In this document: one piece after another, positions 33,213 through 35,493 of the stretch | Numbering within the stretch: position 1 is the first letter of the stretch | How the letters are laid out: each line of letters opens with the position of its first letter | From: a virus | UHGV virus genome: UHGV-0177896 | Length of the DNA: 41,409 nucleotides | Strand: one strand, 5' to 3' | The notes under the pieces: model-generated | The model's input: only the letters and a program-made list of their open reading frames with translations | What the model was told of the DNA's origin: nothing | Databases searched by the model: none | Position numbers and translations under genes: made by a program

Positions 33213-33959
33213 TTACTTCGCAATTCCTGGCTGGACGACATTCGGACGCCAGCTCTCCCAGTTAAAATTCACCCAACACCCGCCGTTCATGGTCATGCGA
33301 TCCATAATCCTCTCGCCGAGCAATGTTTTCATGGCCTCATAGTTCAGGTTTGTCAGCATTCCCACGCTACGCATCGACGCTGTCCGTCGATCAATAATCT
33401 GGTGCAGTACCACCTGCTCGTTTTTCGTCTCGCGCTGAATGCCAATTTCATCAAGAACCAGCAGATCCACTTCGCACAGCTCCCGCAAAAATTTTTCGCC
33501 TGACTGCCCGTCGTCATAGCTGGCGTGCAGGGCGCTCATAACATCAGCCACGGTAACCACAATCACTGTCTGACCGTCTTTCAGCAGGCGATTCCCGATA
33601 GCTGCCGCTAAGTGATTTTTCCCGGTACCAGGTTTTCCGCTGAACGCAAAATTTGTACACCCGGTCATCAGTTCATCGGCGATGGATTTCGCCTGGCTTA
33701 ACGCGTATCGCTGCCCTTCGTTCTGCACCTGGTAATTCGCAAACGAGCATTTGCGGTGCAACGGCTGGATGCCAGAGCGATTCAGGATTTTTTCCACCCG
33801 CAACTGACGATTCAGGCGGTTGATCTCCTCGCAACGTTTCTGGCCTTCAGCAAGTTGCCACTCGCGCCACTCCGCAACCGTTCTGAATGGGGCGGTTACA
33901 TGTGGTGGGGTCAGTCTGCGGATACGCTCCAGAACGCCTCCTGTCGCAATATTTTTCAT
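33213..33959 (-). CDS. DnaC/IstB-like replication helicase loader (AAA+ ATPase)
   Basis: Walker [16 protein letters not shown] and Walker [10 protein letters not shown] are present. 248 aa, downstream of the DnaT-like initiator gene. Same position as YdaV in Rac. Confidence 0.85.
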
Positions 33960-33965
33960 GGTCCG

Positions 33966-34754
33966 TTACCCCCTGAAGCCTGGCGGGATCGCACTGTCCG
34001 GCAACGAGACGGTGTTAACCTGTCGGAGCAACGTCTCAGGCCGAACACCTTTCGGCGCGAACAGGCCCTGGTATTCATTGGCGATGCTGTGTCGAATCAC
34101 CTGCTCAGGTGTAAAACCCTGCTGACGGAATTTTTCCAGCTCCCGTATCGCCCCGTTAGCGCCCTGCTCCGTTCGAATCGGTTTTCGCAATGCCTGCCTG
34201 AACTGAACCCACTCATGCCAGAGTGTTTCCGGCAACCAGTCAGGCAGCTCGATAGCCTCCGGCTCGAATTTTTTAGACGCTCGTTTTTGGCGAGGGGGAT
34301 TTAGGGGGAGATCAGTATTTATATCTTCCTCTTCCTCTTCCTCTGGTAACGCTTTTTGATCCGTTTGTGTAACGCTGGCAGCGTTACCTTTTCGTTTCAG
34401 TTCGCGTATTTTTGTAACTCGCTCGTTTGTAACCGCCCGTTTTTTAGAGCTTTTTCCGTTATGACGTTCAAAGTTAGGTAGAGAAAGCCCAACGTCATTT
34501 TCGACCAGCCATCCAACCTGAATTAACGCATCAGCAAAACCAGCCATAAAAGTGATGCGATCTATTGCACTTTTTGTAACGCCGCGAGCGTTACAATCTG
34601 CATTACCGTCTATCATTTGTTGATCCGCCCATGCCCAGAAGCGAATAACCTTCCCTAATGCGGCATCTGGATCAATATTCAGAATCTCAGCAAGCCTGAA
34701 TATTTCCGGCTTATCCGGCGTAATAACCTCGAGCTTTATCCAGTTTGAAGCCAT
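33966..34754 (-). CDS. Replication initiation / primosomal protein (YdaU-like)
   Basis: 262-aa ORF preceding the DnaC-like gene, with a central acidic linker (EEEEEEDINTD). Contains two 19-bp palindromes in its coding sequence. Confidence 0.55.
   Translation of the reverse strand: MASNWIKLEVITPDKPEIFRLAEILNIDPDAALGKVIRFWAWADQQMIDGNADCNARGVTKSAIDRITFMAGFADALIQVGWLVENDVGLSLPNFERHNGKSSKKRAVTNERVTKIRELKRKGNAASVTQTDQKALPEEEEEEDINTDLPLNPPRQKRASKKFEPEAIELPDWLPETLWHEWVQFRQALRKPIRTEQGANGAIRELEKFRQQGFTPEQVIRHSIANEYQGLFAPKGVRPETLLRQVNTVSLPDSAIPPGFRG
34369..34387. repeat. 19-bp palindrome GTAACGCTGGCAGCGTTAC (copy 1 of 3)
   Basis: Perfect GTAACGC-N5-GCGTTAC dyad inside the replication gene; an extra GTAACGC half-site lies at 34346..34352. 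Confidence 0.7.
34576..34594. repeat. 19-bp palindrome GTAACGCCGCGAGCGTTAC (copy 2 of 3)
   Basis: Same GTAACGC-N5-GCGTTAC dyad, 207 bp from copy 1, inside the replication gene. Confidence 0.7.
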
Positions 34755-34767
34755 TTGTTTTCACCTT

Positions 34768-34786
34768 GTAACGCTCGCAGCGTTAC
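34768..34786. repeat. 19-bp palindrome GTAACGCTCGCAGCGTTAC (copy 3 of 3)
   Basis: Same dyad, immediately upstream of the replication gene's RBS and ATG (34754). Confidence 0.7.
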
Positions 34787-34831
34787 ATTTAACTGATACC
34801 GAACAAAACAATCCGGCACGATTAATTTCAA

Positions 34832-35254
34832 TCAATGCACTACGACAGAATCGCCGGGCGACCCACCACCGCTGAAATGTGCTTTCCGGTAAACGGCCTG
34901 GACTGCATCATCATGCGCATCAATTGCCGTACTCAACGCTTCCTGCGCCGCCAGTAATGCACGGCGTTCCAGGGTATCGAAGATGCAGAGTCGGTGACGC
35001 AGCTCGCGCGGAAGAATTGCCAGAACCGCAGGGATCAGTTTCTGAATTTTTTCCCTTTGCGCTTTCGTTTCACCTTTCAACCAACGGTGATAGATATTCT
35101 GCTGATTGTTCCAGTCCTTGCCTGGTACAAGGGGCAATTCGCCGCCCCCCTGGCGCAGATATTCTTCAGTAATTGCGTTAGCGACCCACGCCTGCCCTTT
35201 TTCGGCTGCCAGGGCTAACAACACTGATTCGATGTGCTCATGCCTGATTTTCAT
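34832..35254 (-). CDS. ydaT: YdaT-like early protein (CII-like position, 140 aa)
   Basis: 140-aa ORF translationally coupled (ATGA) to the Cro-like gene. Matches my recollection of Rac YdaT in length and N-terminus (MKIxHEHIESVL). Confidence 0.5.
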   Translation of the reverse strand: MKIRHEHIESVLLALAAEKGQAWVANAITEEYLRQGGGELPLVPGKDWNNQQNIYHRWLKGETKAQREKIQKLIPAVLAILPRELRHRLCIFDTLERRALLAAQEALSTAIDAHDDAVQAVYRKAHFSGGGSPGDSVVVH

Positions 35255-35493
35255 GAATCAACCGCTCCTATGCTGTTTTCGCTATGCTTACCGTCTGGGG
35301 GGAATACATCGTCAAGTCCACAATGAGCGCCAAGCCGATTAAGGGTAGAAACAATTTTTCTGCACTCCTCTAGTCCAGGGGTACGAAAATTTGCTTCGTA
35401 ATTTGCCAGTCGGCTTTGTATCCACCCTAACTGAACAGCAAGTTGTCTTTGAGACAGCCCAAGCTGTTTTCGATATGTTGAAATTTTGTTCAT
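35251..35493 (-). CDS. ydaS: Cro-like HTH regulator (YdaS-like, XRE family)
   Basis: 80 aa with an HTH (LGLSQRQLAVQLGWIQSRLANYE). First gene of the early operon, divergent from the repressor gene, with a GGAGG SD. Confidence 0.6.
   Translation of the reverse strand: MNKISTYRKQLGLSQRQLAVQLGWIQSRLANYEANFRTPGLEECRKIVSTLNRLGAHCGLDDVFPPDGKHSENSIGAVDS

Follow-up and report, generated by a model that had tools for sequence, protein, structure and literature searches.

Repeated palindromes in a prophage replication initiator gene as probable initiator-binding sites of a lambda-type origin

The virus genome UHGV-0177896 (the window; i.e., the whole stretch of 41,409 nucleotides [nt] that was analyzed) is an Escherichia coli Rac/CP-933P-like lambdoid prophage, and sequenced E. 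coli chromosomes contain identical DNA. It encodes a 262-amino-acid (aa) "replication initiation protein" (positions 33966 to 34754, minus strand; phrog_2509, no Pfam family), here called the initiator, and a perfect 19-bp palindrome, GTAACGC-N5-GCGTTAC, occurs three times in and immediately upstream of this gene. We estimate at about 70% the probability that these dyads are initiator-binding sites of a phage replication origin, possibly with an autoregulatory function as well. Judged from sequence comparisons, the most likely arrangement is a lambda-type origin inside the initiator gene, carried by an initiator family unrelated to lambda O. The initial annotation had proposed such origin repeats by analogy with lambda gene O, and the proposal is strongly supported by comparative evidence, namely, constraint at the DNA level, conservation in distant phages, concerted change of the sites, association with the initiator N-domain only, and an adjacent polypurine tract of low stability. 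As in a lambda-type origin, dyad-symmetric repeated sites are found family-wide in the initiator open reading frame (ORF), where the N- and C-domains meet, next to an easily melted tract with purine/pyrimidine strand asymmetry. Binding itself, the oligomeric state of the initiator, melting, recruitment of the helicase, and any autoregulation are inferred from these features.

The three dyads start at positions 34369, 34576, and 34768, where the initial annotation had placed them, and a search of the window for further copies, even at 2 mismatches, found none. The expectation by chance is 0.11 perfect dyads, and three were reached in 0 of 100 shuffles. The 7-mer half-site occurs 12 times in the window (3.9 expected), with 7 of these occurrences inside 34346 to 34786. 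Site 1 (34369 to 34387; GTAACGCTGGCAGCGTTAC) comprises initiator codons 123 to 129 (G-N-A-A-S-V-T), lies in the linker, predicted to be disordered, that joins the N- and C-domains, and is the proposed core of the origin array. Site 2 (34576 to 34594; GTAACGCCGCGAGCGTTAC) comprises codons 54 to 60 (C-N-A-R-G-V-T) in the lowest-confidence loop (residues 47 to 60) of the predicted N-terminal domain. Site 3 (34768 to 34786; GTAACGCTCGCAGCGTTAC) is noncoding; it is located in the ydaT-initiator intergenic region, at -32 to -14 relative to the initiator ATG, and directly abuts the Shine-Dalgarno sequence AAGGTGA (34761 to 34767, minus strand). The earlier description of two dyads in the ORF and one just upstream of the ribosome-binding site (RBS), with extra half-sites nearby, was thus accurate. 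An isolated exact half-site, GTAACGC (34346 to 34352, plus strand; gene sense GCG TTA CCA, encoding A135-L136-P137), lies 23 bp (start to start) past the right arm of site 1 and directly before the polypurine tract described below. A one-mismatch half-site, GTAACTC (34414 to 34420, plus strand; gene sense CGA GTT ACA, encoding R112-V113-T114), has an exact GCGTTAC equivalent (CGC GTT ACA) in several relatives (e.g., at +335 in loci L085 and L088). The other one-mismatch half-site (34600 to 34606, minus strand; GTAATGC in gene sense, GCATTAC on the plus strand; codons G50-N51-A52) is located 12 bp upstream of site 2 in gene sense, and its equivalent is an exact GTAACGC (GGT AAC GCA) in 13 of 14 other loci, which results in a forward-forward-reverse arrangement at 12-bp steps. 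The even spacing of about 200 bp that had been pointed out earlier is seen in the window (207 and 192 bp, start to start) but is not conserved in relatives (181 to 203 and 184 to 264 bp), in which the three dyads also show no helical phasing. The spacing of about 200 bp is incidental. On the plus strand, antisense to the initiator, dyad 1 followed by CTTTTCGTTT (34369 to 34397) scores as intrinsic terminator-like; this element may halt antisense transcription into the origin or may be a coincidence.

Codon usage in the arms was examined in an alignment of 17 nonredundant homologs with 42 to 99% protein identity. Six arm codons for conserved residues (AAC twice, GTT twice, TTA, and CCA) are single-codon throughout the alignment. 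Asn is encoded by AAC in 18 of 18 sequences at site 2 and 16 of 16 at site 1, and Val is encoded by GTT in 16 of 16 at each of the two sites; in the Ala-Leu-Pro half-site (34346 to 34352), Leu is encoded by the rare TTA (16/16) and Pro by CCA (17/17). Among background conserved residues, the top codon averages 0.61, and just 2 of 60 columns show a single codon (Mann-Whitney P = 5e-5). The residue preceding Asn is Cys, Gly, or Ser, encoded exclusively by TGT, GGT, or AGT (at site 2, the variation in 14 loci is solely among these codons), and the residue preceding Val is Ser or Gly, encoded by AGC or GGC with few exceptions. The 5-bp spacers are free to vary while the arms stay invariant; among relatives with 97 to 100% identity, 10 of 15 spacer positions are polymorphic, compared with 16% of positions elsewhere. 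The noncoding site 3 has the same arms as sites 1 and 2, indicating that the motif is a DNA element. Because synonymous arm positions are fixed across genera, the spacers are free, and one copy is noncoding, the constraint acts on the DNA, with the peptide repeat imposed by the DNA and not the reverse. In the predicted structure, the in-gene dyads fall in the least confident loop (residues 47 to 60) and the disordered linker (residues 99 to 159), which would be the places that best tolerate a protein sequence dictated by DNA. The spacer of site 1 (34376 to 34380) has two main alleles in loci L001 to L082, TGCCA (41 loci) and TGGCA (24 loci), which are exact reverse complements, as are those of a minor pair (TGACA in two loci and TGTCA in one). 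These alleles look like loop inversion through hairpin-mediated template switching, which, if so, implies that the palindromes extrude in vivo.

The conservation of the sites was assessed in 22 loci, with one genome per species; a first scan of viral contigs had returned near-identical copies only and was uninformative on this point. Dyads with the same arms occur at three homologous positions (-31 to -43, +149/161, and +338 to +413) in Mixta, Erwinia, Yersinia, Serratia, Pantoea, Rahnella, Pectobacterium, and other genera. The position of site 2 is +149/152/161 in nearly all family members, and that of site 1 is +338 to +413 across the family. The upstream dyad is clade-specific; it was found with at most 1 mismatch in 12 of 17 enterobacterial-type loci (L081 to L097) and is lacking in loci whose upstream gene reaches the start codon. 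Both in-gene dyads and the Ala-Leu-Pro half-site are retained in Pseudomonas phages PAN70 and VW-6S, Xanthomonas phage CP2, and Ralstonia phage YL1, where they sit among different neighboring genes. An unbiased scan for 5-N9-5 palindromes in 80 diverse IMG/VR contigs recovered the same two in-gene positions in most of them. Where the arms differ, every site of a genome is altered alike. In the Vibrio-like clade, both in-gene positions and the extra half-sites read GTCAC...GTGAC; the arms of L156 are GTGAC...GTCAC, an identical asymmetric dyad is found at the two sites of L137, and Salmonella phage epsilon15 has GTCCGC/GCGGAC arrays. Such concerted change, as read from these sequences, would be the pattern expected from one cognate sequence-specific reader per phage.

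The actual unit of these arrays is the 7-bp half-site, which has a nearly invariant core, TAACG. Adjacent half-sites are spaced at 12 bp in forward-forward pairs (77 cases), 12 bp in forward-reverse pairs (174 cases), and 11 or 12 bp in reverse-reverse pairs (89 cases); further spacings are 22 to 24 and 33 bp. Half-sites spaced by 11 to 12 bp or multiples thereof lie on one face of the helix, and some relatives have arrays of up to six half-sites. In gene sense, site 1 is followed by the half-site at 34346 to 34352, a polypurine tract, and the least stable 25-mer, in that order. The 21-nt polypurine tract (AGAGGAAGAGGAAGAGGAAGA; 34324 to 34344, purines on the minus, gene-sense strand and pyrimidines on the plus strand) encodes the acidic residues E138 to D144 and is the longest purine/pyrimidine run of the window. 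The 25-mer (AGATCAGTATTTATATCTTCCTCTT; 34309 to 34333) has a nearest-neighbor free energy of -26.9 kcal/mol, compared with a mean of -34.3 (standard deviation, 2.8) for the 2.4-kb replication/immunity region, and together with the polypurine tract it forms the proposed DNA-unwinding element. The same layout is found across 95 nonredundant relatives: the purine run has a median length of 21 nt and begins a median of 17 bp past the linker dyad, and the 25-mer with the lowest stability in the first 700 nt of the gene begins a median of 7 nt downstream of where the run starts. The run consists of (AGAGGA)n repeats, which encode EEEEEE, or of (AGAGA)n repeats, which encode REEKRRE; the conserved property is therefore polypurine DNA and not the peptide.

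Two further sequence features lie close to the proposed unwinding element. GATC (Dam) sites at 34310 to 34313 and 34358 to 34361 flank the polypurine tract and the isolated half-site, and the "GAT CAA" ahead of the Ala-Leu-Pro half-site is retained in most enterobacterial relatives. Dam/SeqA control is known at other origins, and the flanking GATC pair could provide a link to it. Past the AT patch, at 34294 to 34309 (GGGGGA TTTA GGGGGA on the plus strand), two short gene-sense C-runs (CCCCC..AAT CCCCC) encode Pro-rich residues; their DNA sequence is maintained in many relatives (epsilon15 and IMG/VR contigs among them), and they may be a GC "clamp" that bounds the unwinding element.

The initiator consists of an N-terminal domain predicted to be winged-helix-like with a following basic helix (aa ~11 to 121; 34392 to 34724), a linker that is disordered in the full-length model (aa 99 to 159; 34278 to 34460), and a helical C-domain with a DnaT-like C-terminal tail (aa 160 to 262). 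Searches of Pfam gave no family match for the protein, and Phage_rep_O (PF04492) was not matched even at an E value of ≤5; the "O-like" phrog_678 is matched by the C-terminal part only. In hhalign comparisons, the N-domain profile scored probabilities of 0.2% against lambda O and 0.07% against DUF1376 (no PF07120 match in the window protein), and homology to either was rejected. Fold searches with the N-domain returned weak, generic winged-helix matches only (the top Foldseek match is the N-domain of a plasmid Rep, 4pta, at a nonsignificant E value of 1.0), and no specific solved structural homolog was obtained in this way. The last ~20 residues (VNTVSLPDSAIPPGFRG; 33966 to 34020) nearly match the C-terminus of E. 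coli DnaT (…VNTVSEPDSQIPPGFRG). This tail motif is invariant in many homologs, is shared with K-12 YdaU, and is likely a short linear motif that contacts the helicase/loader machinery. The gene had been called DnaT-like in the initial annotation, which applies to the tail but not to the rest of the protein: alignments to DnaT chains cover the C-terminal tail alone (E = 0.04 to 0.13), the score against the NCBIfam DnaT equivalog is 16.8 bits (cutoff, 201 bits), and there is no match to PF17948. Relatives such as epsilon15 and VW-6S do have a true DnaT domain (PF17948). The DnaT-like tail, the full DnaT domain in some relatives, and the adjacent DnaC-like gene are consistent with helicase recruitment by the C-domain.

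The initiator family is large, with 6,766 clusters at an E value of ≤1e-3 and, at 50% identity, >4,000 protein clusters; Pfam contains no model for it, and most members are annotated as "hypothetical." Numerous E. coli, Shigella, and Salmonella prophages encode a member, as do phages of Pseudomonas, Xanthomonas, Ralstonia, and Vibrio. A frequent variant in E. coli and Salmonella (P0013, P0040, and others; 376 to 380 aa) contains an insert of ~114 aa directly after the acidic run (i.e., just past the proposed unwinding tract), with flanks that are 93 to 99% identical and no Pfam match. Family members were also found in nonproteobacterial records, namely, those of Novipirellula rosea (L098) and of metagenome-assembled genomes of Ignavibacteriae (L099) and Akkermansia (L100). 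The first two have GTAACGC dyads and the third has epsilon15-like GCGGAC sites, which reflects either contamination/misbinning or a much wider host range of the family.

On the reading of the dyads as origin sites, replication could start as follows. The N-terminal winged-helix-like domain and the following basic helix would read the core TAACG, initiator dimers would occupy the 19-bp dyads (half-site centers 12 bp apart), and further protomers would extend over half-sites at 11 to 12 bp on one helix face. The complex on the linker array (site 1 plus 34346 to 34352) would then strain the polypurine/AT patch (34309 to 34344) and cause melting, after which the C-terminal domain with its DnaT-like tail would recruit DnaB together with YdaV, a DnaC-like loader. 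Sites 2 and 3 would be auxiliary arrays with a possible role in stabilizing a looped or wrapped complex. Since site 3 abuts the RBS, the two might in addition exert feedback on initiator expression, and an autoregulatory role of this upstream site is possible.

A different reading, which we consider unlikely, is that the initiator binds the dyads solely as autoregulatory operators (by roadblock or repression) and that the true origin is elsewhere in the prophage. Site 3 does abut the Shine-Dalgarno sequence, single dyads scattered at intervals of about 200 bp do not resemble the tandem iterons of lambda, and, in iteron plasmids, inverted repeats bound by initiator dimers are classical autorepression sites. 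However, no sigma-70-like promoter overlaps any of the dyads (a match was sought at site 3 in particular), and the site next to the RBS is lacking in 5 of the 17 enterobacterial loci and in most distant relatives, while nearly all family members have the linker array. An operator would also have no need of a polypurine/low-stability tract, which is always found at a fixed short distance from the linker array, and relatives carry phased direct half-site arrays. Finally, the Rac prophage of E. coli K-12, which has a different N-domain, has different repeats at the same linker position.

The K-12 Rac prophage also bears on which protein reads the sites. Compared with the window, its YdaT, YdaV, YdaW, and initiator C-domain are 95%, 96%, 99%, and 81% identical, respectively, while its N-domain is an unrelated DUF1376 (K-12 YdaU, PF07120, E = 2.7e-26); there are zero GTAACGC half-sites in 6 kb, and the linker has different, TGTTCAAACA-type repeats. 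K-12 Rac is thus a natural domain swap. Over 29 loci, the dyads track only with the initiator N-domain: a homolog of the Cro-like protein is present in no other dyad-bearing locus, the cI-like protein, where there is one, is no more than 36% identical, and many loci lack YdaT, YdaV, or the C-domain. This pattern, the concerted site changes, and the winged-helix-like model point indirectly to the initiator N-domain as the probable binder of the sites. Binding by another protein (i.e., a host factor, YdaT, the cI-like or Cro-like protein, or the DUF1627 winged-helix protein) is highly unlikely, although several helix-turn-helix (HTH) or winged-helix proteins are encoded close by and the initial annotation had listed the repressor, the Cro-like protein, and a dimeric HTH protein among its candidates. 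The footprinted box of YdaT is TTGATT-N6-AATCAA (PMC9986795, PMC11879457), which differs from the dyads in sequence and spacing, and the 95%-identical YdaT of K-12 Rac coexists with no half-site. The window contains a YdaT-box match with 1 mismatch over the ydaT start codon (35244 to 35261), as reported for Rac and CP-933P, and one with 2 mismatches in the ydaT-initiator intergenic region (34818 to 34835), 32 bp from dyad 3; the latter might be counted in favor of YdaT, but matches at such stringency are no rarer than chance in the window. The cI-like, Cro-like, DUF1627, and YdaV proteins and the initiator C-domain were ruled out as binders by the co-occurrence matrix. A host factor is an improbable binder, as the same dyad is common to phages of distant hosts (Pseudomonas, Xanthomonas, and Ralstonia) and different sites are used within one host, Salmonella, by epsilon15 and by GTAAC-type prophages; the site class thus follows the phage initiator and not the host.

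Still less probable is that the palindromes function at the RNA level, forming hairpins in the ydaS-ydaT-initiator mRNA that affect its stability, processing, or translation, with the site 3 hairpin near the RBS. Each dyad can form a stem of 7 to 9 bp, the leader with the site 3 hairpin folds at -27.5 kcal/mol (z = -3.1), and the change in the Vibrio clade (A to C with T to G) keeps the pairing. The arms, however, are invariant in sequence and do not covary: the 91 broken pairs in 193 dyads comprise 5 sense-strand G-U wobbles, 19 antisense-type pairs, and 67 others, so that there is no wobble bias. Asymmetric dyads that break the stem are kept at both sites (L137; GCGTTAG in Pseudomonas), isolated and direct-repeat half-sites at 11 to 12 bp are unable to pair, and the joint change of all sites in a genome points to a sequence-specific reader. 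An Rfam search gave no match to a relevant family, and a structured RNA element was rejected. The remaining explanation, to which we give almost no weight, is that the palindromes have no DNA function and are a by-product of a needed N-A-x-x-V-T peptide plus chance; the amino acid repeat that the initial annotation had named as a possible refutation does exist, since both in-gene dyads encode x-N-A-x-x-V-T and this is conserved in protein alignments, but the codon data reverse the causality (synonymous positions are fixed and neighboring residues are confined to xGT or xGC codons), one copy is noncoding, the motifs sit in a low-confidence loop and a disordered linker, relatives with longer arrays read the half-site in three different frames (SVT, KALL, DRY, and GVT), and the chance expectation is the low value given above.

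Several observations weigh against the reading of the dyads as origin sites. The AT-rich patch is short (about 11 to 16 bp), and the two distal sites (2 and 3), whose spacing is not conserved, are not accounted for. DnaA and IHF consensus sequences were not found in 34200 to 34900. Among the 97 to 100% relatives, polymorphism in the arms (4/42) compared with the rest of the gene (129/812) shows a nonsignificant trend (P = 0.19), and population-level depletion of single-nucleotide polymorphisms in the arms was therefore set aside. Phylogeny confounds the correlation of the site class with the basic segment of the protein. Because the in-gene sites are physically within the N-domain/linker ORF, their co-occurrence with the N-domain is partly automatic, and the argument rests on synonymous-site fixation, the noncoding copy, and the concerted changes. 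A bolder version of the origin reading, which we put forward as a tentative possibility, is that these phages represent an undescribed and very widespread replicon class, in which half-sites at a phase of one helical turn are embedded, in up to three frames, in the codons for the DNA-binding domain and linker of the initiator, a triplex-prone polypurine repeat is the unwinding element, and initiator oligomerization gathers the two or three dispersed clusters into a looped complex that couples firing to autoregulation.

The initiator gene lies in a replication and immunity neighborhood on the minus strand. A Cro-like gene (35251 to 35493) and the CII-like ydaT (34832 to 35254) lie upstream, and ydaV (33213 to 33959), encoding the DnaC-like helicase loader, is immediately downstream; a cI-like gene is divergent from these genes, and recE is located further along. 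YdaV matches NCBIfam PRK12377 (E = 3.5e-153), the DnaC equivalog (E = 1e-90), and Pfam IstB_IS21/Bac_DnaA and is presumed to be the partner that delivers DnaB to the opened origin. In Shigella flexneri SFBU1023 (L081) and E. coli ECMA0423 (L082), the initiator is cut to 210 aa with the three dyads intact; these are decaying prophages that keep their cis sites.

Among known systems, E. coli DnaT resembles the window initiator in its C-terminus (the VNTVSLPDSAIPPGFRG tail) and differs from it in having no sequence-specific origin-binding N-domain. The winged-helix Reps of iteron plasmids (pPS10 RepA, pSC101 RepA, R6K pi, and others) read one half-site in two arrangements, as inverted repeats for dimers, often for autorepression near the start of rep, and as phased direct repeats at the origin. 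The window and its relatives likewise have a dyad next to the RBS plus direct half-site arrays. In contrast to those Reps, the initiator has no Rep_3/RepA Pfam match (and the 4pta match is nonsignificant), its sites are within its own ORF, and their period is 11 to 12 bp instead of about 22 bp. K-12 Rac (ydaU-ydaV; historical oriJ) shares the gene order ydaS, ydaT, initiator, ydaV, and ydaW, the closely similar C-domain, YdaT, and YdaV described above, and a repeat cluster at the equivalent position in the linker; it differs in the DUF1376 N-domain of YdaU, which is unrelated in sequence, and in having TGTTCAAACA-type repeats instead of GTAACGC half-sites. In K-12 MG1655 Rac (L189, 2972 to 3078), the ydaU linker contains 4 to 5 copies of approximately AGATGTTCAAACA at 33-bp and 12-bp steps, plus a perfect inverted copy (ATGTTCAAACA/TGTTTGAACAT). 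Located at a position equivalent to that of site 1, these repeats are candidates for the iterons of oriJ, the historical Rac origin.

A further close parallel is the lambda origin. Lambda gene O, read directly, contains four 18-bp palindromic iterons at +349 to +433 (PMC7466680), followed ~20 bp later by an 18-nt purine run in an AT-rich tract, in the same order and polarity as here. In both cases, the origin is in the initiator ORF at the N/C junction (the array here is at +368 to +409), the sites are ~18 to 19 bp with dyad symmetry, a purine-rich, easily melted tract comes next on the gene sense strand, and the helicase-loader gene is directly downstream. As in lambda and the Shiga toxin (Stx) phages, which include variants with six iterons, changes in site number add or remove linker residues of the initiator (PMC7466680), and N-domain specificity and the C-domain helicase-loader interface are swapped as modules. 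The two systems also differ. There is no detectable sequence homology with lambda O (hhalign, 0.2%; no PF04492). The sites form two to three clusters ~200 bp apart instead of a single tandem block, with one cluster in the codons of the folded DNA-binding domain and another outside the gene by the RBS, and they are built from 7-bp half-sites with a period of 11 to 12 bp. A G+A polypurine repeat makes up the unwinding tract, while that of lambda is mainly A/T, and the C-domain has a DnaT-like tail with a DnaC-like loader in place of lambda P. An origin within the initiator gene is thus already known as a kind, and a literature search, which did not extend to the oriJ papers, found no account of such an origin for this initiator family. 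The architecture departs from that of lambda in its dispersed clusters, in its sites within DNA-binding-domain codons and at the RBS, and in its G+A unwinding tract.

These comparisons provide a testable origin and recognition sequence (core TAACG, 12-bp dyad spacing, and 11- to 12-bp phasing) for a large family, with possible uses in predicting replication-module specificity and incompatibility of Rac-like prophages, in mini-replicon design, and in the annotation of origins in phage genomes. The gene is also a clean natural example of an overlapping code, in which loop and linker residues are dictated by DNA sites that the protein probably binds. If the dyads are origin sites, the lambda solution recurs with a sequence-unrelated initiator, which would imply convergence or very deep common ancestry.

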